Shown piece after piece: positions 9,350-43,652 of a stretch of DNA of 64,000 bases. Both the position numbers and the translations under genes were made by a program. Position 1 is the stretch's first letter. Every line of letters starts with the position of its first letter. The stretch covers positions 10,524-74,523 of the IMG/VR virus record IMGVR_UViG_3300035703_000060, one strand, 5' to 3'. This DNA is from a virus. A model generated the notes under the pieces. The model was not told the DNA's origin and ran no database searches. It saw only the letters and a list, made by a program, of their open reading frames with translations.

Positions 9350-12300
9350 ATGGCACAAAAAACTAATCTTAATGTCAATCCATATTTTGATGATTTTGAT
9401 TCAACAAAGAATTTTTATAAAGTTCTTTTCAATCCAGCAAAACCAGTACAGTCTAGAGAGTTAAATACTATACAATCTATTCTTCAAAACCAAATAGAGT
9501 CTTTTGGAAGTCATATCTTCAAAGAAGGTTCTATGGTTATACCTGGTGGAGTATCCTATGATTCAGAATATTGTGCCGTAAAATTAAATTCTACTTCTTT
9601 TGGTATAGACATTTCATTGTATATTGAAAAATATGTCGGACAAATTATTAGGGGAGAAGTTTCTGGGATATCTGCAGTAATAAAAGAAGTAGTTTTTCCA
9701 AATAGTAGTGGTGTAGAAACTATAACTCTTTATGTAAAATACTTAGAGTCAAATAACAGTTTTAATCAGTCATTCTTTTTAGATGGTGAATCTTTATTAT
9801 CTACAGAAGCAATATCTTATGGAATTAATAATACAGTAATATCTGACGGAACTCCCTTTGCTTCATTAATATCTGAGAATGCAACAGCAACGGGATCTTC
9901 AGTTTCTATTGATAATGGTGTTTATTTTGTTAGAGGAACTTTTGTAAATGTAAATAAACATACATTAATTCTGGATTATTACAATAATATTTCTTCTTAT
10001 AGAATAGGTCTAAGAGTATCTGAAACCATCATAACAACAAAAGATGATGAGACACTTTTTGATAATGCAAAAGGTTTCACAAATTTTGCATCCCCAGGAG
10101 CAGACAGATTTAAAATAGATTTGTCTCTGACAAAAAAACCTTTAACAGATATTAATGACACAGATTTTATAGAATTATTAAGAGTTGAAAATGGTTTTCT
10201 TAAAAAGATCGAAAATAAAACAGATTATAATTTAATAAAAGATTACATTGCACAAAGAACTTATGATGAATCTGGAAATTATACAGTTACACCATTTACA
10301 ATTTCTGTAAACAATTCTTTAAACAATTTACTTGGAAATAATGGAATTTATTTTGATGGAGATTTAACAACTGCAGGAAATACTCCTTCTGATGATTTAA
10401 TGTGTGTAAGTGTAAGTCCGGGTAAGGCTTATGTAAAAGGTTATGATGTTGAAAAAACTAATACAACTATTTTAGATGTTGAAAAACCAAGAGATACACA
10501 AACAGTTACTGGTGCTTTAGTCCCATTTAAGATGGGAAATATTTTAAGAATTAACAATATCTATGGTGCGCCAACTAACAAATCAACAGTATATTTTTAT
10601 AGTAAAAGAAGAAATGGTGCTACTTCATCTCCAAATGGAGTCGAATTAGGATCTGCAAGAGTTTATCTATGTAAACTTACTGATGCAGCGTATGACGGTG
10701 CTAAAACCAAATGGGATTTGTATCTTTATGATATACAATTTTACACTCATTTAACTTTAAATAATTCTTTAACTGCAACTCAATTACCAGCAACATCTAT
10801 TATTAAAGGAAATAGTAGTGGTGCAACTGGTTATGTTGTATCTGCAGGTACTAGCGGAAATTTAGCAATTATAAGACAAACATCTGGTGTATTTTTACCT
10901 AATGAAAATATTACCATAAATGGTACAACACTGACATCTAGAACTATTTTAAATGTAAAATCTTACACTTCTTCTGACATTAAATCTGTTTATTCTTCAG
11001 GTAGTCCTGCATTTTTAGCAGATTCTGTTTTAGACTCATTTATTCCATCTGGATTTAGTGGACAAGATCAAATCACTATAGGATCAGATGGGGTAGTAAG
11101 AACTACAAATAAACCATTTAGTGGTATATCTACCGATACCATTGTAAAATATTCTAGACCAGGATTTAGTACAGAAACATACAATAGCGTTACTAGTGTT
11201 GCTTCAGATGGAACAACATTTACCTTATCTGGAATATCATCAGTAACAAATGTTAATGATGGTGGTGTTACAAGTTCCAGTCTACAATCTAGATTTTTAG
11301 TTGGAAACTCAGTATTAAGAGATCAAAGTTCTGGGTATCTATATTCAGTCTTACCAAACACTAATATTTCTAGTATAGATCTTAATAATTCTCAGTTAAC
11401 ATTTTCAGCACAATCTACATCCTCAAATGTAATATCTGGAGGATCTTTAACTTTATCAACTGGTGATTTTAATTTACCTGGAAATTCTGGATCAATAAAA
11501 TTTGATACTTTTGATGCAGAAAAATATTCCATACACTATAGTGATGGAACTACTGAAACAATAACAGATGATCAAGTAACTTTTAATGCAGAGTATACAC
11601 AAATTACTTTTAATGGAATTACAAATGGAAAAACAACATCAATCATAAATGGCACTTTCGTAAAAACTGGGATACAAAGTAAAACAAAAGTTCACAAAAA
11701 GAGTACAATACTTAATGTCGAATTATCAAAGTATGAGCAATCTGGATCAAATGCAAATTCTTCAGTTAATGATGGATTAACATTTAATAGATATTATGGA
11801 TTGAGAGTTCAAGATGAGGAAATATGTTTAAGATATCCTGATGTAATTAGAGTATTAGCAGTATATGAATCACTAGATTCGTCTTTACCAACTTTTGACA
11901 AATTAAACTTTTCTTCACTATATGGCATTTCAAGCAACTCTATAGTTGGTGAAAATATAGTTGGAAAGACAAGTAAAGCATTAGCAAGAATTGTAAAGAA
12001 AGACTCTTTATATCCAAACAGTGTAGAAATAGTATATTTAAATAATAATAAGTTTCAAGTTGATGAAGAAGTTACTTTTGAAGACTCTAACATAGTCGCT
12101 CCAATTTCTTCATTATCTTTTGGACGATTTAAAAATATCACAAATATTTTTAAATTAGATAAAGGTCAAAAAAATCAATATTATGATTATTCAAAACTAA
12201 TAAGAAATAATAATGAACCAGAACCTAGTAGGAAAATTACTATAGTATTAGATCATTATGACGTTTCTCCAACAGATTCTGGAGATTTGTACAGTATCTT

Positions 12301-20640: not shown

Positions 20641-21069
20641 ATGAAATCTAAAAGTTTTGACTCCTTAGATAATGTGTTGAACACATCTAGTGAAATGCAG
20701 GTTTATGAAGAACCAAAATCCTCAGAAATAAAAACTGTTGATCAATCATCAGTTGACATAAAAAAAGATTATGAGTATACGAGAGCCAACCTCTATTCTT
20801 TAATTGAGAAGGGTCAGGAGGCGATTGATGGAATTATGGAACTTGCTGCGGAAAGTGATCAACCAAGGGCCTATGAGGTCGCTGGACAACTTATAAAGAG
20901 CGTTGGTGATGTAACTGATAAACTTATAGATCTTCAAAAAAAATTGAAGGATATAGAAGATGAAAATATAAAAACGACAAACAATGTTACTAATAATGCA
21001 GTGTTTGTCGGATCTACATCAGAGTTATCAAAACTACTGAAGCAAGGTTTTCTAAATAATAAAGAGTAG
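20641..21069 (+). CDS. gp16: Terminase small subunit gp16
   Basis: 'DYEYTRANLYSLIEKG', 'PRAYEVAGQLIK', 'FVGSTSELSKLLK'. Confidence 0.93.
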   Translation: MKSKSFDSLDNVLNTSSEMQVYEEPKSSEIKTVDQSSVDIKKDYEYTRANLYSLIEKGQEAIDGIMELAAESDQPRAYEVAGQLIKSVGDVTDKLIDLQKKLKDIEDENIKTTNNVTNNAVFVGSTSELSKLLKQGFLNNKE

Positions 21070-21083
21070 TTCTTTTTGATCTG

Positions 21084-23027
21084 ATGGGTTGGTCGGAAAA
21101 ATATAAAAAATCTATTGATTGCGACAATCCCAAAGGATTTTCACAAAGATCTCATTGTCAAGGTCGTAGAAAAAAATTGAAAGAGCAATTTAAATCATTT
21201 AAGACAGTTGAACAAATTGCAAAGAAGCATCGTCTTGATGTTTCTTTCATCCAAAGGCAACTTGATATGGGTGAACCAATTGAACATGAGCATACTAAAG
21301 ATCATAAATTGGCCATGGAAATTGCTCTTCAACATTTGGATGAAATTCCAGATTATTATACTCGTTTGAAAAAGATGGAAGCATCTGCAAAAAAAGAACA
21401 TAAAAAGTTCAAAGATGCTCCCGTTTCTGAAGGTACATTACATCATTGGTATCAAGGTTCTCGCTCAAAGGGGGGGAAACCAGGATGGGTTCAACCAGAT
21501 GGGTCACCCTGTGCCAATGAACCAGGTGAAACTAAAACTCCAAAATGTTTTAGTAGTGCAAGATTAAGATCTCTCAAGAAAAAAGGTAAAAAAGGAATTT
21601 CACTTATCAGATCCGCAGTTAGACGTAAGAGACAAAAAGATAAAGGACAACAAGCAAAATCTGGGGCGGCAGCACCAACTAATGTTCCAACATTTGCAAA
21701 GGGTAAAAAAGATCCTAACTATGTAAAGGCAGAACCAGGAATTAAAGAAGCAATGGAACTTAACGAAGCAAGAAAAGACAAACCTGGAAAAGGTAGTGGA
21801 ACTAAAGATGCTTGCTACCATAAAGTAAAGTCACGATATGATGTTTGGCCAAGTGCATATGCATCTGGAGCACTGGTTAAATGTCGTAGAGTTGGTGCTT
21901 CAAACTGGGGAAATAAATCAGAATCTTTAAACTATGATTGGGATACTCCCATTCGTGAAAGACCAGATAGATATTGCCCCAAATGCCAAAAACTAGAACT
22001 GAGGAGTGAGTGTAAATATGGTCCGAAATATTGGGATATGTTTTCATTACCTGCAGAATTAATTAGTTCAAAAAAAGATTTTAATACAACTATGCCACAC
22101 CCCGGAAATATGCCAGAGGGATACGATCACGAGTACTCAATGGCACGTTCTGAAATCTCTACAATTATTTCAGCAGCGAAAAGACTTCGTAAAAAAATGG
22201 CAAAAGGTGAGGGAAATGTTGAAGCATGGGTACAATCAAAAATTACCAAAGCAGCAGATTATTTAGATTCTGCCGCAGATTATGTTGATAGTGGTGAAAT
22301 GAAGGAGCAAGTTGCAGATACTAATGCAATGTCCGACAAAAAACCATTTGATGTCGCAGTGAAAAAAATCATGGACAGGAAGGATAAAATGACTCCTAAA
22401 CAGAGAATCATTGCTCTTAAACAAGCAGGAAAATTTCAAGGAGTTGATGAGCAAATGCTTCCACCAATCAATCCCGAAAAACATAAACAATTGCAAAAAA
22501 CACAAAAACTTTATAATAAAGGTGCGAGTACAGATAATCCACATGAAAAAGAAATTTTCTTAAAAAGAACTGGACCACAATTACCTTTAGCAAAAAGAGA
22601 AACTAAAACTCAAGTTGCACATTATGAACCAGAAGGTGAAGTAATTGATGAAAAGTGTTGGCCTGGATATAAAAAGAAAGGAATGAAAACAATGTTTGGA
22701 AAAAGATATCCAAACTGTGTTAAATCGGAAGAGTTCTCTAATTGGAGAGCGGATTTTGGATTATCAGAAGATTGGCAAAAAGTTAATCGCAAAGATAAGA
22801 CTGATGGATTGAGCCAAGCAGCAGTTGATGCTTATCGTCGTGAAAATCCAGGATCAAAACTTCAAACTGCGGTAACTGAAAAGAAACCAAAAGGAAAAAG
22901 AGCAAAGCGTCGTGCTAACTTCTGTCGGCGTATGAAAGGCATGAAGTCTAAACTGACTTCTGCAAAGACTGCAAGAGATCCAGATTCAAGAATTAATAAA
23001 GCACTCCGTCGTTGGAACTGTAACTAA
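21084..23027 (+). CDS. Modular, basic, polyprotein-like hypothetical protein (candidate internal head protein)
   Basis: About 10 unrelated Lys/Arg/Cys-rich segments, each ending in hydrophobic-x-Glu; late-like CTAAATA at 21052-21058. Confidence 0.7.
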   Translation: MGWSEKYKKSIDCDNPKGFSQRSHCQGRRKKLKEQFKSFKTVEQIAKKHRLDVSFIQRQLDMGEPIEHEHTKDHKLAMEIALQHLDEIPDYYTRLKKMEASAKKEHKKFKDAPVSEGTLHHWYQGSRSKGGKPGWVQPDGSPCANEPGETKTPKCFSSARLRSLKKKGKKGISLIRSAVRRKRQKDKGQQAKSGAAAPTNVPTFAKGKKDPNYVKAEPGIKEAMELNEARKDKPGKGSGTKDACYHKVKSRYDVWPSAYASGALVKCRRVGASNWGNKSESLNYDWDTPIRERPDRYCPKCQKLELRSECKYGPKYWDMFSLPAELISSKKDFNTTMPHPGNMPEGYDHEYSMARSEISTIISAAKRLRKKMAKGEGNVEAWVQSKITKAADYLDSAADYVDSGEMKEQVADTNAMSDKKPFDVAVKKIMDRKDKMTPKQRIIALKQAGKFQGVDEQMLPPINPEKHKQLQKTQKLYNKGASTDNPHEKEIFLKRTGPQLPLAKRETKTQVAHYEPEGEVIDEKCWPGYKKKGMKTMFGKRYPNCVKSEEFSNWRADFGLSEDWQKVNRKDKTDGLSQAAVDAYRRENPGSKLQTAVTEKKPKGKRAKRRANFCRRMKGMKSKLTSAKTARDPDSRINKALRRWNCN

Positions 23028-23028
23028 G

Positions 23029-23343
23029 ATGAAATCTTTTCAACAATTTCTATCAGAAAGTATCAATATTGCTGGAGATTTTAATGGAAATCTCTATATG
23101 AATTCTGGATCTCAACCAGAACAAGCAACAGAATCTTTCCTTGCTGATGTAGTTTGGCAAGGTAAATTATATCGTATGGAAGTAGAGGGTTCTATGATAG
23201 ATAAGAATTCTCTTACGGAACAACTTCAAGGAGAATATCCTGGAGCAATTGTTCATAATGTTTATCCAGTACAATCTCAAAGTTCTTTAAGAATTAAAAA
23301 TACACAAAGATATCAACCAGAAAGACTCACTTGGACTGATTAA
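23029..23343 (+). CDS. Hypothetical protein with a T4-type capsid targeting sequence
   Basis: N-terminus MKSFQQFLSE, compared with the T4 internal-protein leader MKTYQEFIAE. Confidence 0.7.
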   Translation: MKSFQQFLSESINIAGDFNGNLYMNSGSQPEQATESFLADVVWQGKLYRMEVEGSMIDKNSLTEQLQGEYPGAIVHNVYPVQSQSSLRIKNTQRYQPERLTWTD

Positions 23344-23345
23344 TT

Positions 23346-24932
23346 ATGGCACAATGGAACAAGTCTACACAAGATTATCTAAATCAAGAAAGAACACTTC
23401 ACGAAGTTTATCTTCGTGCTGATGAGTATGGAAATATTCTAAATGAAAGTGCTTGTGCAAAATCTGCTTTTGGTGAGAATATTGCTATTCAATTAACACC
23501 AAAAGTTCAGGGTGATGCTGTCTATGGACTAGATCCGAGAGAGTTTGAGAGATTTACTTTTAGTTCTAGTGGAATTGCTACAAATGGTAATTCTAGATTT
23601 AGAGTTGGTGCTGGAACAGATGCTAATTCTTATGGTGTTATTAGAAGTACAAACTTTTTAAGATATCGTCCTGGACAAGGCGCGGTATGTAGATTTACTG
23701 CGGCATATTCTTCCAACCCAGTAGGATTTACTCAAAGAGCAGGTTTATTCAATCAAGAACAAGCAATTCAAATTGGATATGCCTCCACCAATGGAAAGTT
23801 TGGTGTTCTTCGTGCGAATGGTGGTAAAGCACATATTCAAATTTTTACTTTCAGTGCGTTAGCAGACGGAAATGTAACAGTTACTCTTAATGGAACTGTT
23901 TTTACTGCGGTAACTTTAAATGCAGGGTCTGTTGCCGGAAATATTGCTCTGCTTGTACAAGGATTAGTAAGTCAATCAGCATTTACTGCTCGTTATGTGG
24001 CTGAATATGATGAAACCAGAATAAAGTTTTTAGCAACATCTCTTGGTCCACAAAATGGGACATTTAATGCAACTAGCACCACAACAATAACGTTTACAAA
24101 CACAACAAGTCAAAGTGGCGTAGCACAAACAGAGTATTGGACATTCCAAGAAGATTTTAATTTAGATAAACTTGATGGCACTGGATACTCTGGTGTTACT
24201 TTGAATCCATCAAAACTAAATGTATATCAAATTAACTTCCGTTGGTTGGGTGCCGGTGAAATTCGTTATGCAATTGAAAATCCTCATAATGGAGATATGA
24301 TGTTCTTCCATCACGAACATTATACAAATAAATATGAGTTTCCACATCTAGATAATCCATCATTGAAGATTGGATACGTAGCAGCAAACTTGGGATCTCC
24401 TACAAGTGGTGTTGTAACTTGTACTGGTTCTTCATTCCTTGGAGCTGTTGAAGGAATTGTTGAAAGGACAAGACTTCCTTATTCTATAACTGCGACCAGA
24501 ACTGACTCAATGAATACTCCTGGTTCTTTATATCATCTTGTTTCTCTCAAAAATAAACTTGTTTATCAGAATAAAATCAATACAAGAGATCTTATTGTTT
24601 CAAGACTTACTGGATCAGTAAATACTACCGGTAGTCCCGCAGTCATTTACTTATATTGGAATCCAACAATTACAAACTATCTAAGATGGACAACTCAGAG
24701 TGATTTTAACGCATCTCTTTATGCAACCCAAGATAGTACAGGATTGTTTATATTAGGAGCACAATCAATACCACCTATTGCCGCTTTTCATGTTTCTAAT
24801 GGAGACACTATTGATGTTAATTTAATTGATATGGGCATTCATATTCCACCAAATAGTTTCTTAACCGCAGTAATTTCATCCACAAGCAATATGACTGCTG
24901 CCAATGCTTCGTTCGTTTATGTTGAAGATTAA
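23346..24932 (+). CDS. Putative virion structural protein, beta-rich
   Basis: 528 aa, Thr/Ser/Gly-rich, 'RYRPGQG', 'YQINFRWLGAG'; lies in the late operon between gp16 and gp17. Confidence 0.55.
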   Translation: MAQWNKSTQDYLNQERTLHEVYLRADEYGNILNESACAKSAFGENIAIQLTPKVQGDAVYGLDPREFERFTFSSSGIATNGNSRFRVGAGTDANSYGVIRSTNFLRYRPGQGAVCRFTAAYSSNPVGFTQRAGLFNQEQAIQIGYASTNGKFGVLRANGGKAHIQIFTFSALADGNVTVTLNGTVFTAVTLNAGSVAGNIALLVQGLVSQSAFTARYVAEYDETRIKFLATSLGPQNGTFNATSTTTITFTNTTSQSGVAQTEYWTFQEDFNLDKLDGTGYSGVTLNPSKLNVYQINFRWLGAGEIRYAIENPHNGDMMFFHHEHYTNKYEFPHLDNPSLKIGYVAANLGSPTSGVVTCTGSSFLGAVEGIVERTRLPYSITATRTDSMNTPGSLYHLVSLKNKLVYQNKINTRDLIVSRLTGSVNTTGSPAVIYLYWNPTITNYLRWTTQSDFNASLYATQDSTGLFILGAQSIPPIAAFHVSNGDTIDVNLIDMGIHIPPNSFLTAVISSTSNMTAANASFVYVED

Positions 24933-24934
24933 TT

Positions 24935-26656
24935 ATGAGCATTCAAGACATTCAACTAAAGCAAAGTGATGCTTATCTTTCTAACCCAAATTTAAAGAGA
25001 GCAAATACACAGATACAGTGGACTAAAGAGCAAATACTTGAGTTTTATGCTTGTAAAGAAGATCCAGTTTACTTTGCAAAAAATTATATTAAAATTGTTT
25101 CTTTGGATCATGGACTTGTTCCATTTGAAATGTATCCTTTCCAGGAAAGACTTGTAAATAATTTCCATAAGAACAGATTTAATATCTGCAAGATGCCCAG
25201 ACAAACTGGGAAAAGTACTACTGTAGTATCGTATCTTTTACATTATGCAGTATTTAATGATAATGTAAACATTGCAATTCTGGCAAACAAAGCCTCAACG
25301 GCAAGAGATCTTCTTCAAAGATTGCAACTTGCTTATGAAAATTTGCCAAAGTGGATGCAACAAGGTATTCTGTCATGGAACAGAGGATCATTAGAATTAG
25401 AAAATGGATCTAAAATTATCGCCGCATCTACTTCTGCATCTGCTGTTCGTGGCGGATCGTACAATATCATCTTTTTGGACGAGTTCGCGTTCATCCCGAA
25501 TCACATTGCTGATGACTTCTTTGCCTCTGTTTATCCTACTATCTCGTCAGGTCAAAGTACAAAAGTCATTATAGTTTCCACCCCTCGCGGTATGAATCAT
25601 TTCTACCGCATGTGGCATGATTCTGAGAAAGGTAAGAATGAATATCTTCCTACTGATGTTCACTGGTCTGAAGTTCCTGGAAGAGATGAAAAATGGAAAG
25701 AGCAGACGATTGCAAACACTTCAGAACAACAGTTCAAAACAGAGTTTGAGTGTGAGTTTTTAGGATCGGTCAATACCCTAATTAACCCATCAAAACTAAG
25801 GAATCTTGTATACGAAGACCCTATAAAAAGAAACGCAGGTCTTGATGTTTATGAACATTCAAAAAAAGACAATAATTATTTAATAACAGTAGACGTTGCT
25901 CGTGGAATAGGGAATGACTATTCTGCATTCGTTGTTTTTGATATCACTAATTTTCCATATAAAACGGTAGCAAAATACAGAAATAACGAAATTAAACCAA
26001 TGTTATTTCCAAGCATTATTAATGAAGTAGCAAAGGGGTATAACAATGCTTGGATTTTAATCGAAGTTAATGATATTGGAGATCAAGTATCAAATATTCT
26101 TCATTTTGATCTTGAATATGATAATATTTTAATGTGCTCTATGAGAGGTCGTGCAGGACAAATAGTTGGTTCTGGTTTTAGTGGAAAGAAATCTCAACTT
26201 GGTGTCCGCATGACAGCATCTGTTAAAAAGTTGGGTTGTTCTAACTTAAAGACTTTATTAGAAGATGATAAATTACTAATCAATGATTATGAAATGATTA
26301 GTGAACTTACAACATTTACTCAACGTCATAACTCCTTTGAGGCAGAAGAAGGATGCAATGATGATTTGGCAATGTGTTTAGTCATATTCTCATGGTTAGT
26401 TGCTCAAGATTATTTTAAAGAGATGACGGACAATGATGTTCGTAAAAGGATATATGAAGAACAAAAAAATCAAATAGAACAAGATATGTCACCATTTGGA
26501 TTTATTTCGGATGGTTTAGAAGAATTTGAACCTATTGTTGACAAGGAAAATAATGATAGGTGGATATGGGTAGGGTCCGATAAAAGTAATCAAGCAATGG
26601 AAGTATGGAATATCGACGAATATGGTGACAGATCTTACATGTGGGATTATAGGTAG
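24935..26656 (+). CDS. gp17: Terminase large subunit gp17
   Basis: Walker A 'PRQTGKST', Walker B 'IIFLDEFAF', nuclease motifs 'VDVARG..NDYS' and 'NDDLAMCL'. Confidence 0.97.
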   Translation: MSIQDIQLKQSDAYLSNPNLKRANTQIQWTKEQILEFYACKEDPVYFAKNYIKIVSLDHGLVPFEMYPFQERLVNNFHKNRFNICKMPRQTGKSTTVVSYLLHYAVFNDNVNIAILANKASTARDLLQRLQLAYENLPKWMQQGILSWNRGSLELENGSKIIAASTSASAVRGGSYNIIFLDEFAFIPNHIADDFFASVYPTISSGQSTKVIIVSTPRGMNHFYRMWHDSEKGKNEYLPTDVHWSEVPGRDEKWKEQTIANTSEQQFKTEFECEFLGSVNTLINPSKLRNLVYEDPIKRNAGLDVYEHSKKDNNYLITVDVARGIGNDYSAFVVFDITNFPYKTVAKYRNNEIKPMLFPSIINEVAKGYNNAWILIEVNDIGDQVSNILHFDLEYDNILMCSMRGRAGQIVGSGFSGKKSQLGVRMTASVKKLGCSNLKTLLEDDKLLINDYEMISELTTFTQRHNSFEAEEGCNDDLAMCLVIFSWLVAQDYFKEMTDNDVRKRIYEEQKNQIEQDMSPFGFISDGLEEFEPIVDKENNDRWIWVGSDKSNQAMEVWNIDEYGDRSYMWDYR

Positions 26657-31409: not shown

Positions 31410-31685
31410 ATGTCAGCACGAATTAAAATTCTTGGAGCAGAAGCAGCACTTCCAACTACAACTGGAACAGCAACTAGTTTCAGTTCAGCAACAGTCGTCC
31501 GTTTAGTTAATACTGCAACTAGTGCAGATTATCTGGTTACGGTTGTTGAAACACAGGGTGGCAGTGTTATTGGATCATTCACACTAATGAGGTCTCAATC
31601 AGAATTGTTAGAAAAATTACCATCACATTGCGTTTATGCTGCAAACGCTGCTGTTTTGGGAGCAAAAGTAGGATTTACAAACTAA
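31410..31685 (+). CDS. Small hypothetical virion-associated protein
   Basis: RBS AAAGGA; 91 aa, beta-rich; in the head operon. Confidence 0.7.
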   Translation: MSARIKILGAEAALPTTTGTATSFSSATVVRLVNTATSADYLVTVVETQGGSVIGSFTLMRSQSELLEKLPSHCVYAANAAVLGAKVGFTN

Positions 31686-31689
31686 GAAA

Positions 31690-32340
31690 ATGAAACTCAT
31701 CACAGAAGAAGTATCACAAGTAAAATTTATCACCGAAGGAAAAGGTTCTCAGAAAAAACTGTATATTGAAGGAGTTTTTCTTCAAGGTGATATTTGTAAT
31801 CGCAATGGAAGAATGTATCCAATGGAGACACTCTCCCGCGAGGTAAAAAGATATACAGAATCTTTTATTAACAAGGGTCGTGCTCTTGGAGAACTTGGAC
31901 ACCCAGATGGTCCAACAGTAAACCTTGATCGAGTTTCTCATAAAATTGTTTCTCTTACTCAAGAGGGATCTAATTTTAGAGGTAAAGCACAACTTCTCGA
32001 AACTCCAATGGGCAAGATTGCAAAATCTCTTATTGATGAAGGAGTTTGTCTTGGTGTTTCTTCTCGTGGTGTTGGTTCACTCAAAATGACCAATGAAGGT
32101 CACAAAATTGTTGGTGAAGATTTCATGCTTGCTACTGCAGCTGATATCGTTGCCGATCCTTCTGCTCCTGATGCTTTTGTTCAGGGAATTATGGAAGGTA
32201 AAGAGTGGGTATGGGAAGGCGGAATTCTTCGTGAGCAACTTGCAGAATCTACAAAACGTAGAATTAATACTTTAGTTGATGAAAGAATACTTCAAGAATA
32301 TAAAGTTGAGTTGTTCCAAGAGTTTCTCTCAAATCTTTAA
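31690..32340 (+). CDS. gp21: Prohead protease gp21
   Basis: 'MKLITE', 'NRNGRMYP', 'ALGELGHP', 'GVSSRGVGS', 'DIVADPSAPDA'. Confidence 0.97.
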   Translation: MKLITEEVSQVKFITEGKGSQKKLYIEGVFLQGDICNRNGRMYPMETLSREVKRYTESFINKGRALGELGHPDGPTVNLDRVSHKIVSLTQEGSNFRGKAQLLETPMGKIAKSLIDEGVCLGVSSRGVGSLKMTNEGHKIVGEDFMLATAADIVADPSAPDAFVQGIMEGKEWVWEGGILREQLAESTKRRINTLVDERILQEYKVELFQEFLSNL

Positions 32341-32382: not shown

Positions 32383-33507
32383 ATGTCCGTTGGTAGAAAT
32401 TTACAAGAAATGGAAAACGTAGTAACCAAAGGTGCTGCACCTGCCGAACCAATGCACAACACCTCACAGAATGCATCTGGAGTTGCTACTCCAGGTCAAA
32501 CTGGTGCTTGGGAAGATTTAGGTGGACCTACTCCAGAAAATTATCGTCCAGATGATGATTCTGCAAAACTCAAGGATCCATCAGCGACTCTTGCCCAAGT
32601 AAGAGATGTTGTAAATGCTAAGGCAGCAGCAGTTAAAGAAGAAGTTGTTGACGAAGAGGAAGACGTAATTTCTGAAGAGGAAGAAGTTGAAGAAGAAGAC
32701 TTAGAGGCAGAAATAGAAGAAGAAGAAGCAGCAGAAGAAAGCGAAGAAGAAGTAGTTGCAGAAGAAGAGTTTGATATCGAAGAAGATGTCAATGCTCTCC
32801 TCGCTGGTGAAGAGCTTTCCGAGGAATTCCAAGAGAAAGCACGCACCATCTTCGAAGCTGCTATCCGTTCAAAAGTTTCTGAAATCAAAGAAGAACTTCA
32901 AGAGACTTATGAAAATGCACTTATTGAAGAAGTTCAGTTCATTAAAGAAGAATTAACTGAGCGTTTAGACGCTTATCTTGAGTACGTTGCCGATGAGTGG
33001 ATTCAAGAGAATGCACTCGCCATCGAGCACGGTCTCAAGACTGAGATGACCGAATCATTCCTTCAAGGAATGAGAGGTCTTTTTGAAGATCATTATGTTT
33101 CAATCCCTGAAGATAGATATGATGTAATCGAGAGCATGGTAGATAAACTTGATGAAATGGAAGAAAAACTCAACGAGCAAATCGAAAGAAACGTTGCTCT
33201 GAACAGAAGATTAGCCGAGTCGGTTGCCGATGTAATCTTTGCAGATGTCGCTGAGGGTCTCGCACTTTCTCAGAAGGACAAACTCGCTTCTCTTGCAGAA
33301 AATGTTGAGTTTGATGGTGAAGAGAACTATCGTGAGAAACTGGTAACTCTGAGGGAATCATATTTCCCAACCAGAAGTGCTGGTACTCAAAGAGATGACT
33401 CTGAAACTTTATCTGAGTCTGTTTCCTATGATACAAATTTAACTGAATCTGTATCACCTTCTATGGAAGCATATCTTCAGACTCTTAGCAGAGTCGCTAA
33501 AAAGTGA
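32383..33507 (+). CDS. gp22: Prohead core scaffold protein gp22
   Basis: Very acidic coiled coil; 'LSEEFQEKARTIFEAA', 'YLEYVADEW'. Confidence 0.93.
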   Translation: MSVGRNLQEMENVVTKGAAPAEPMHNTSQNASGVATPGQTGAWEDLGGPTPENYRPDDDSAKLKDPSATLAQVRDVVNAKAAAVKEEVVDEEEDVISEEEEVEEEDLEAEIEEEEAAEESEEEVVAEEEFDIEEDVNALLAGEELSEEFQEKARTIFEAAIRSKVSEIKEELQETYENALIEEVQFIKEELTERLDAYLEYVADEWIQENALAIEHGLKTEMTESFLQGMRGLFEDHYVSIPEDRYDVIESMVDKLDEMEEKLNEQIERNVALNRRLAESVADVIFADVAEGLALSQKDKLASLAENVEFDGEENYREKLVTLRESYFPTRSAGTQRDDSETLSESVSYDTNLTESVSPSMEAYLQTLSRVAKK

Positions 33508-35036: not shown

Positions 35037-35450
35037 ATGAAGACTTTTAAGCAGTTTATATCTGAAGCATTACCATTTGGTGCTGTAGTATCAACTAGTT
35101 CTTATGGTCCAGGATTATATGGAAATCCTACTGCATCTGGTGCAAAATTAACTCCATCAACTAGAGGGGTTGCACATAAAACTTTACCTCTTGGAAGTCA
35201 GGTAAGAATTACAGATCCCAAAACAAAAAGATCAATAACTGCTCCAGTCGTTGATAGAGGACCTTATCATGGAAATCGCCAATACGACTTAACTACAAAA
35301 ACAACACAAGATCTTGGATATAAAGACTATAAACAATTTGGTGTTAGAGATCTTGACGTAACACCTATAAAACCAAAACCAAAAGTTCCAGATTTGGGTG
35401 TAAAGGTTGATATGAGTGTTCCAAAAATTGTTCCAACTAAGAAAAGATAA
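35037..35450 (+). CDS. RlpA-like double-psi beta-barrel lytic transglycosylase with an N-terminal capsid targeting sequence
   Basis: 'SSYGPGLYGNPTASG', 'VAHKTLPLGSQVRIT', 'VVDRGPYHGNRQYDLT'; leader MKTFKQFISE. Confidence 0.85.
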   Translation: MKTFKQFISEALPFGAVVSTSSYGPGLYGNPTASGAKLTPSTRGVAHKTLPLGSQVRITDPKTKRSITAPVVDRGPYHGNRQYDLTTKTTQDLGYKDYKQFGVRDLDVTPIKPKPKVPDLGVKVDMSVPKIVPTKKR

Positions 35451-42914: not shown

Positions 42915-43652
42915 ATGAGAGATAAAGAATTTATAGATTTAAGTAATGCTTATAATCAAATTTGTGAGCAAAGTTATGGGATTGATGCTTCAAAGCATGG
43001 TGGTCCAGATAAACTCTTACAAAAAATGGTTGATGAAAAGAAGAGAAGAGGTGATAAAGATGGTGGGGGAGAAGTAGTTCAAAGTGGACTTCAAAAAGCA
43101 AACTATGAACCAGAAGGTGAATTGGTACTAGAAAAGGACGAAACCGAAGAAGGTATTACTGGACTTCCAATTCCAAAAAAGAGAATGAGTTCTGCAAAAA
43201 GACATGAATTTGAAAAGAAAAGAAGAGCAGAAAGAAAAAAGCGTGGAGATGATAGAGTTGGAGATACTTTCTCTCAACATAGAATGACTGGTAGTAGAGG
43301 GCGTGGATCTGAATATCAAAATATTCGCACAGTTCGTGAAGAAGTTCTTGTCGATTATCTTCTTGGAGAGGGTTTTGCTTCTGATGAAAAGTCAGCACAA
43401 GCAATCGCTGGTGTAATGAGTGAAGAGTGGAAAGATAATATTCTTGGAGAGGAAAAAAAAGAATTTCCAAGTGATAAAGTAAGGAAACAATCTGCTAAAC
43501 ATGAAAAAAATTATCTTACCAGACCAAATTCTTATTCTGGGCAAGCATCTAAATCAAAATCTAGAAAAATGAAAGCAATTGCTTCTACTGTGGAAGTTGG
43601 TGATGACCCAAGAAATACCATGCATGGGCAGGATTTAAGAAAAATTAAATAG
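42915..43652 (+). CDS. Late modular hypothetical protein (YEPEGE and MSEEW modules)
   Basis: Own late promoter and terminator; shares modules with the 21084 and 46128 ORFs. Confidence 0.75.
   Translation: MRDKEFIDLSNAYNQICEQSYGIDASKHGGPDKLLQKMVDEKKRRGDKDGGGEVVQSGLQKANYEPEGELVLEKDETEEGITGLPIPKKRMSSAKRHEFEKKRRAERKKRGDDRVGDTFSQHRMTGSRGRGSEYQNIRTVREEVLVDYLLGEGFASDEKSAQAIAGVMSEEWKDNILGEEKKEFPSDKVRKQSAKHEKNYLTRPNSYSGQASKSKSRKMKAIASTVEVGDDPRNTMHGQDLRKIK

Follow-up and report, generated by a model that had tools for sequence, protein, structure and literature searches.

The prohead protease of bacteriophage T4, gp21, cuts after L/I-X-E; the first bond to be mapped was Glu-Ala, an Asp at P1 blocks the reaction, and the core proteins of the head are cut by this enzyme into several fragments (PMC9026906). 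Other head proteins of T4, namely IPI, IPII and IPIII, known as internal proteins, and the Alt protein, are small and basic, are released at a hydrophobic-x-Glu site and come from a hypervariable locus; within the T4 leader, targeting is influenced by positions 4 and 7, and processing by positions 8 and 10 (PMC9026906). We describe here a gene of a T4-like cyanomyovirus whose product probably works like these internal proteins and the multiply cut core proteins. It lies at positions 21084-23027 (plus strand) of a 64,000-nucleotide stretch, called the window in what follows, which covers positions 10,524 to 74,523 of the IMG/VR record IMGVR_UViG_3300035703_000060 and is part of a 74.5-kb uncultured viral contig. 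The 647-amino acid (aa) product, P0001, is a chain of small modules that are reshuffled among distant relatives and whose linkers are enriched, across the family, in a hydrophobic-x-Glu motif of the type cut by prohead proteases. An earlier note on the window had proposed that this protein is packaged in the prohead and cut there into about ten small peptides. The analysis below leads us to hold, with somewhat more belief than doubt, that P0001 is packaged in the head as a precursor, which gp21 cuts at most of the module junctions.

Several known systems resemble P0001 in part. From the T4 internal proteins it differs in having no detectable sequence relationship to them, in failing to show their N-terminal leader, and in carrying about ten units in one open reading frame (ORF), which are permuted among phages and have internal sites as well. 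T4 gp22 and gp67, and the phiKZ and SPN3US proteins cut by gp175 and gp245, are likewise head-internal and have many Glu-ended sites for an S77 protease, redundant within the regions that are removed; they differ in being scaffolds or large paralogues that lose propeptides, not unrelated mini-modules in free order. The adenovirus core precursors pVII and pX/mu give rise to basic, DNA-associated peptides that are cut inside the capsid by the viral protease, but virus, protease and motif are unrelated, and these are single precursors, not a permuted chain. The polyvalent proteins (Iyer et al. 2017, PMC5512222) are mosaic multi-domain proteins, delivered with the virion, encoded beside structural genes and proposed to be processed into parts. 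They have enzymatic effector domains and often a peptidase of their own, whereas neither was found in P0001, whose modules are only 25-90 residues long and whose presumed protease would be supplied in trans. The polyvalent-protein paper makes no mention of cyanophages (PMC5512222).

The closest described family is T4-GC119, the "structural protein" of Sullivan et al. (2010), which was detected in virions, has no known function and sits in a slot called a hyperplastic region (PMC3037559). This family is the same as phrog_727, with its DUF5661 and DUF6321 domains, and P0001 is a member of it: it matches the family profile, ends in DUF6321 and lies in the gp16-gp17 interval, and it has several modules in common with SSM1_115 and Syn9 gp114, besides the slot after gp16 and the wide variation in length (276 to 2985 nt across cyanophages; PMC3037559). 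We found no paper on DUF6321 or DUF5661, no description of the family in the literature on cyanophage prohead proteases, internal proteins or polyvalent proteins, and no publication on the permutable module grammar or the junction motif of T4-GC119.

The ORF described in the earlier note between gp16 and gp17 is indeed open, and every sequence string quoted from it is present. Its product has an isoelectric point (pI) of 9.8, 15% Lys and 13 Cys, and its start codon is supported by the fact that homologues share the N-terminus MGWSEKYKKSID / MSWSxKYKxSID. The nearest isolate is S-SRM01, whose homologue is 65% identical in aa sequence over the full length. P0001, used as the query against which family proteins were judged, contains two Pfam domains, PF18905 (DUF5661, residues 43-99, E-value 1.1e-13) and PF19846 (DUF6321, residues 570-644, E 8.9e-13), both above the curated cut-offs. 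It matches phrog_727 (E 9.7e-91) and eleven other PHROGs families, all of unknown function, as well as SSM1_115 (E 9e-31), Syn9 gp114 and PSSM4_160. The family is large: an exhaustive HMMER scan gave at least 11,886 representatives at 50% identity, and a word-indexed search at least 7986 matches with E <= 0.001. All clusters of known taxon are viral, and a protein-language-model search yielded nothing but hypothetical clusters of viral origin, of which some carry DUF5872 or DUF6321. Neither an enzymatic nor a peptidase domain was found in P0001 in the Pfam and PHROGs searches, and no second copy of its modules was found in the 74.5-kb contig.

When 150 independent representatives of the family are compared by BLAST, the breakpoints fall into zones at residues 30-41, 108-119, 204-233, 276-299, 342-353, 402-413, 504-527 and 546-569 of P0001. 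They cluster at the Glu sites where the earlier note had placed its unit boundaries, and they delimit the following parts, all on the plus strand:

21084..21185, +, module A (residues 1-34): C-x11-C pair; ends in KLKE34, followed by QFKSFK
21186..21431, +, module B (residues 35-116): DUF5661 (E 1.1e-13), helical, without Cys; ends in PVSE116
21432..21767, +, module C (residues 117-209) and the disordered C-D linker (residues 210-228), which holds GIKE222 and ELNE228
21768..21959, +, module D (residues 229-280) and its tail (residues 281-292, ending in PIRE292): KDKxGKGSG, then a DACY...WPSAYASG...C helical hairpin
21960..22118, +, module E (residues 293-345; 295-343 by the breakpoint zones): YCPKC...EC mini beta unit; ends in NMPE345
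22119..22307, +, module F (residues 346-408): DHEYSMARS...WVQSKIT helical pair, acidic (pI 5.8); ends in DSGEMKE408
22308..22652, +, variable region G (residues 409-523): clade-specific helical hairpin (421-450), G2 unit, candidate site GVDE456, YEPEGEVIDE523
22653..22769, +, module H (residues 524-547) and the SNWR linker to GLSE562: KCWPGY...PNCV beta hairpin
22770..23027, +, module I (residues 563-647): DUF6321 (E 8.9e-13), pI 11.1; ends in W-N-C-N, then the stop codon

Module C consists of GTLHHW...GKPGWV...PC...PKC and a basic helix, and for module D the protein-language-model search points at DUF5872-like clusters. Modules A, C, D, E, H and I contain Cys pairs (E having three Cys); the Cys of C, D and E, and likewise C614 in module I, do not vary across 80 close relatives. 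The pieces had been described as basic and often Cys-paired; the Cys pairs stand, and about two thirds of the pieces are predicted to be basic, some 7 of the 11 predicted having a pI of 8.2-11.1, with E, F and a 6-residue piece at pI 4.2-6.5. No single fold holds the chain together. With 80 close relatives aligned, the AlphaFold model of P0001 has a predicted local distance difference test score (pLDDT) of 52 and a predicted template modelling score of 0.22, and contains local elements only, in keeping with the expectation that there would be no integrated fold. A more diverse alignment of residues 117-286 raised the pLDDT to 74.5, with 10-residue block means of 70-92 in module C, about 82 in the core helical hairpin of module D, and less than 50 in the linker between them (residues 218-239, which include GIKE222 and ELNE228). 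Foldseek found no PDB match to this C-D model, and the best Z in a full VIA-align scan, 2.8, is helical-hairpin noise. Because C and D fold separately in the model and match nothing in the PDB, the modules are genuine folding units of unassigned fold. A search of BFVD with the whole P0001 model returned only family members, with query-normalised TM-scores of about 0.05-0.11, as low as flexible chains would be expected to give.

The order of the modules is not fixed. Close relatives of P0001 are collinear with it, apart from a variable stretch at residues 405-550; distant ones are not, and the prediction that order and copy number would be shuffled with breakpoints at the Glu sites was borne out. 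Module profiles revealed 99 different orders in 151 proteins (106 once a tenth module, J, is included), with modules duplicated, missing or permuted, the commonest order being C-D-H-I. Module J is not in P0001 and is carried by 92 family proteins of the set examined. Some myovirus genes start exactly at a module edge, either with M-GTLHHWF or with a mini-leader, MLSE or MERQVSE, followed by GSLH. This free permutation implies that the modules act independently and, together with their high conservation, suggests independent units acting on conserved targets. Further modules that P0001 does not have were also seen, an N-terminal CKxGYYYC unit and a Cys-rich CxCDPCxC unit that often stands before module J, for example in PSSM4_160 (L004:1580-2965) and SSCSM1_29 (L026:2163-3716).

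DUF6321, the domain of module I, was found in 503 records of isolate phage genomes and is in places a gene of its own, of 84 aa in the T7-like Prochlorococcus phage P-SCSP1b and of 93 aa in the pelagiphage HTVC100P. The P-SCSP1b gene sits between the capsid and tail-tube genes and is followed by a basic gene of 58 aa. No protease is annotated in the P-SCSP1b record, and T7-like phages have no prohead protease. In these few examples, chains with putatively cleavable linkers occur where there is a head protease and single genes where there is none, as the precursor model predicts. The two small P-SCSP1b genes, 18 and 19 (L006:3959-4377), encode tiny, very basic proteins, the second being the Lys/Arg-rich one of 58 aa, and both are candidates for internal DNA-associated proteins; the cryo-electron microscopy paper on P-SCSP1u neither mentions nor models the small genes after the capsid gene.

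The ten Glu sites quoted in the earlier note are all real, at residues 34, 116, 222, 228, 280, 345, 408, 456, 523 and 562, and nine of them fit [LIVMF]-x-E. P0001 has 13 such motifs against 7.5 +/- 2.4 in shuffled sequences (P 0.026), and 9 of the 13 lie inside the breakpoint zones, which make up 23% of its length (binomial P 5e-4). The family as a whole gives a stronger signal. Glu accounts for 18% of the residues in 319 unique inter-module linkers and for 4.8% of those in modules. The linkers contain 267 [LIVM]-x-E motifs, whereas shuffling with the composition preserved gives 147.5 +/- 10 (z 11.7; the observed number was not attained in any of 1000 shuffles), and after dereplication to 91 linker clusters 103 remain, against 58.5 +/- 6.2 (z 7.2), z-scores that overstate the independence of the data, since linkers and contexts are related by descent and the dereplication is crude. 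In the same linkers, none of the control motifs [LIVM]-x-D, [LIVM]-E and [AGS]-x-E is enriched, each being flat or depleted, and motif counts inside modules were set aside, as homologous columns are not independent. The enrichment for Glu and not Asp fits a Glu-specific enzyme, given the effect of Asp at P1 on T4 processing (PMC9026906).

The motif is also in register with the module that follows it, as measured from conserved module motifs that were picked as anchors without regard to Glu. It stands directly before GTLHHW of module C in 31 of 37 cases, one residue ahead of KDKxGKGSG of module D in 44 of 58, directly before KCW of module H in 58 of 108 (92% of which have a site at most 7 residues away), directly before DWQKVN of module I in 39 of 48, and one residue ahead of VRIP of module J in 29 of 43. 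For these five modules, a site occurs within 7 residues in 72-97% of cases, against 9.3% of random 7-residue windows taken from the same proteins. The motif is kept whatever the module upstream: before H, it follows C (3/3), D (33/34) and F (17/20), and before C it follows A (6/6), B (4/5) and F (5/6). That five unrelated modules share a Glu-specific signal of three residues at the N-terminal edge is what would be expected from selection by a Glu-specific protease acting in trans. On the strength of the register analysis, residues 116, 228, 523 and 562 are candidate cleavage sites in P0001, and residues 34, 222, 292, 345, 408 and 456 are weaker ones.

The same phage encodes an S77 prohead protease. 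The genes run in the order gp15, gp16, P0001, a 104-aa ORF, a 528-aa ORF, gp17, gp18, gp19, gp20, gp21, gp22 and gp23, and those that bear on P0001 are:

20641..21069, +, gp16, small terminase subunit (PF11053, phrog_445), directly upstream of P0001
21084..23027, +, P0001, lysine-rich modular protein of the T4-GC119 / phrog_727 family
23029..23343, +, 104-aa gene with leader MKSFQQFLSE and a module-J-like body (phrog_1742, J profile)
23346..24932, +, 528-aa "virion structural protein" (phrog_1645), which separates gp17 from the presumed cargo genes
24935..26656, +, gp17 (Terminase_6N/6C), two genes downstream
31690..32340, +, gp21 prohead protease, the presumed processing enzyme (Peptidase_S77, PF03420, E 7.8e-37)
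32383..33507, +, gp22 scaffold, in which hydrophobic-x-Glu occurs 32 times, among other places in an acidic run similar to the linkers of the P0001 family

As the earlier note stated, gp23 has FLYE followed by Ala; the four residues lie at 51-54.

A second line of evidence links the junctions to head targeting. In 12 of 386 family proteins, the N-terminus is a leader of the form MKTFxEF...hydrophobic-x-E, which is followed directly by module B (QFKSHK...) or module C. The junction between leader and module B in these relatives, E then QFKSHK, is the one found in P0001 as KLKE34 then QFKSFK, with module A where the leader would be. The gene that starts 1 nt past the stop codon of P0001 (the 104-aa gene) also bears a leader, and its place behind the family gene is kept in S-SRM01, S-RIM50 and S-SCSM1. 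The leaders of the relatives and of this neighbour, MKTF/MKSF...F-hydrophobic-x-E with aromatic residues at positions 4 and 7, resemble those of the T4 internal proteins. The module J profile matches the small leader-bearing proteins SSCSM1_30 (E 2.7e-15), S-RIM50_109 (3e-9) and the 104-aa protein of the window (1.4e-4); the homology is clear only with the profile, a direct phmmer comparison of the 104-aa protein with the family giving one weak match (E 0.003). Inside polyproteins, module J is preceded by hydrophobic-x-E and then A or S. The J unit is thus found in two settings, in a single gene behind a leader and in the interior of a chain.

Homologues of P0001 have been detected by mass spectrometry in virions of S-SM1 and S-CREM2. 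T4-GC119 was scored as a structural protein of S-SM1 virions, with 13 peptide counts for SSM1_115 (PMC3037559, Table S8), a protein that shares modules C, D, H and I with P0001 and has a weak match to E. In the virion proteome of S-CREM2, ORF160 was represented by 7 unique peptides and ORF137 by 4 (PMC10665884); the former has the order C-H-D, and the latter comprises an acidic region, a J-like sequence and DUF6321. No relationship was found between ORF137 and the 528-aa protein of the window. The S-SCSM1 homologue, SSCSM1_29, has the order C-D-H-E-J-I and precedes a leader-bearing gene of 106 aa. It is labelled "virion protein" in the S-SCSM1 record, and is unconfirmed in the mass spectrometry tables of the paper that reports 45 virion proteins of this phage (PMC9602691).

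We infer from these data how P0001 might enter the head, be cut and act. P0001 would be a late, virion-associated precursor in which some ten autonomous mini-modules are connected by disordered linkers; these are short and rich in Glu, and every one of them has a hydrophobic-x-Glu motif immediately ahead of the next module. The precursor would be built into the prohead core alongside other cargo from the gp16-gp17 slot, and gp21 would then cut after the linker Glu residues, releasing about ten peptides of 4-12 kDa. The basic Cys-pair pieces C, D, H and I would remain associated with the packaged DNA, either to serve as counter-ions or to be injected as factors, and the acidic linkers would hold the precursor inactive until cleavage. 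This model would provide a testable mechanism for a gene family that is present in nearly all T4-like cyanophages and for which current annotations go no further than "hypothetical" or "structural". The paradigm of the T4 internal proteins, leader-tagged and single, would be widened by it to a permutable polyprotein, and it would account for the hypervariable gene length and the hyperplastic gp16-gp17 region. The small, highly conserved peptides C, D, H and I would then probably be carried into Synechococcus and Prochlorococcus. The viruses with this family are abundant in marine and fresh waters, T4-like cyanophages being among the commonest viruses of the ocean, and the junction motif would offer a rule by which metagenomic phage contigs could be searched for other head cargo processed by a protease.

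A bolder form of the precursor model, which we think unlikely as it stands, makes P0001 a combinatorial cocktail: about a dozen mini-proteins, most with a conserved Cys pair and placed in any order behind protease sites, would be cut in the capsid and delivered with the DNA as independent effectors, for instance against host defences, and not as mere counter-ions. Podoviruses without a head protease would use the same library as single small genes. Such a polyprotein strategy has apparently not been described before for tailed-phage cargo.

A number of observations count against cleavage by gp21 in the head, in addition to the shared descent of the linkers noted above. Most directly, cleavage products have not been seen for a single member of the family, and the published proteomes show presence in the virion, not whether the protein is cut or intact, because they come from tryptic searches. 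T4-GC119 (Syn9 gp114) went undetected in Syn9 virions and is absent from S-PM2 (PMC3037559), and our own sequence search found no homologue in S-PM2. P0001 itself is devoid of an N-terminal capsid-targeting leader, a sequence of 10-19 residues with hydrophobic-x-Glu at its end, and starts with MGWSEKYKKSID of module A, and only about 3% of its relatives carry a targeting-type leader. As to the sites, the view that they are of the prohead-protease type gains from the family-wide enrichment and from the link to leaders; it does not extend to NKSE280, which falls outside [LIVMF]-x-E. The motif is weaker at modules E (25%) and F (44%), and modules B and I have three motifs in their interior (residues 64, 87 and 599). 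It also moves with the downstream module, so that part of the signal could be a conserved N-terminal module edge. Finally, pieces E and F are acidic or neutral, and no fold or family match in the Pfam, PHROGs and PDB searches gives P0001 any function.

Several of these points suit another explanation, that P0001 is an uncleaved virion protein whose modules work while tethered, like beads on a string. It would be, for example, a multivalent protein binding DNA or the capsid interior, and the acidic hydrophobic-x-Glu linkers would be spacers, charge balance or a docking motif. The anatomy of the chain and the tryptic detection of homologues in virions fit this equally well, P0001 has no targeting leader, and a motif that moves with the downstream module could belong to that module. 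Against this stands the fact that five unrelated modules share a three-residue motif in a fixed register, with Glu and not Asp, and that, in relatives, a leader of the targeting type ends at the same junction. Module J occurs both behind a leader and inside polyproteins, and the free order, together with the single-module genes of podoviruses, argues that tethering is dispensable. We regard the tethered protein as doubtful, and as the most serious competitor of the precursor model. If cleavage is accepted, P0001 might instead be an accessory of the prohead core or scaffold, like T4 gp22, gp67 and gp68, which gp21 cuts for clearance before DNA entry, the fragments being assembly aids and not cargo. 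Its linkers do resemble the acidic, motif-rich run of the phage's own gp22, its gene lies among head and packaging genes, and in T4 the core proteins are cleaved to several fragments, most of which leave the head (PMC9026906). This is nevertheless improbable: mature virions purified from at least two phages still contain homologues, known scaffolds are acidic and these modules strongly basic, the absence from S-PM2 and the size range of 276 to 2985 nt are unlike an essential scaffold, and DUF6321 is a stand-alone gene in a T7-like phage. The least credible possibility, to which we give very little weight, is a late DNA-binding or regulatory protein that does not belong to the particle and is only carried along when virions or DNA are purified. 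A protein with 15% Lys and a pI of 9.8 might do so, and the low counts or coverage in virion proteomes (13 counts; 4-7 peptides) and the failure to detect it in Syn9 would agree. However, homologues were found in virions purified on caesium chloride from two phages, each studied in a different laboratory, and in a third record the homologue carries the label of a virion protein. In addition, the gene has a conserved position in the structural operon adjoining genes for proteins with targeting-type leaders, and some relatives themselves carry such leaders.

Other genes of the window and of its relatives bear features similar to those described above. A short linker micro-module of P0001, YEPEGE-(V/L)-x-x-E-K (22599-22655), recurs at 43080-43136, in a late ORF of 245 aa (42915-43652); with 19 residues, 52% of them identical (E 0.52), the match is too brief to carry significance by itself, but it takes in a hydrophobic-x-Glu site. 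Between gp20 and gp21, a 91-aa ORF (31410-31685, plus strand; phrog_19805, function unknown) has two hydrophobic-x-Glu motifs and occupies the position of the small core proteins gp67 and gp68 of T4. Directly after gp23, a 137-aa late protein (35037-35450, plus strand) starts with MKTFKQFISE. This sequence and the MKSFQQFLSE of the 104-aa protein resemble the targeting leader of the T4 internal proteins. The PHROGs matches of the 137-aa protein are to families of the "lipoprotein precursor" type, and it may be a head-packaged cell-wall enzyme.

The gp16-gp17 slot harbours further proteins in other cyanophages. In S-CREM2, the gene directly after gp16, ORF136 (L022:1402-2115), encodes a lysine-rich protein of 237 aa that starts with MQTFSMFFSE and has no evident match to the modules of P0001; it is basic and was detected in virions with 8 peptides (PMC10665884). 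This suggests that the slot is a general head-cargo locus in cyanomyoviruses. In many marine relatives, a Thr/Ala/Gly-rich protein of about 180 aa, which is not there in the window, is encoded between gp16 and the polyprotein (S-SM1 SSM1_114, T4-GC403, L020:1499-2035; L002:3325-3870; L021:1231-1776). SSM1_114 is abundant in S-SM1 virions, with 60 peptide counts (PMC3037559).

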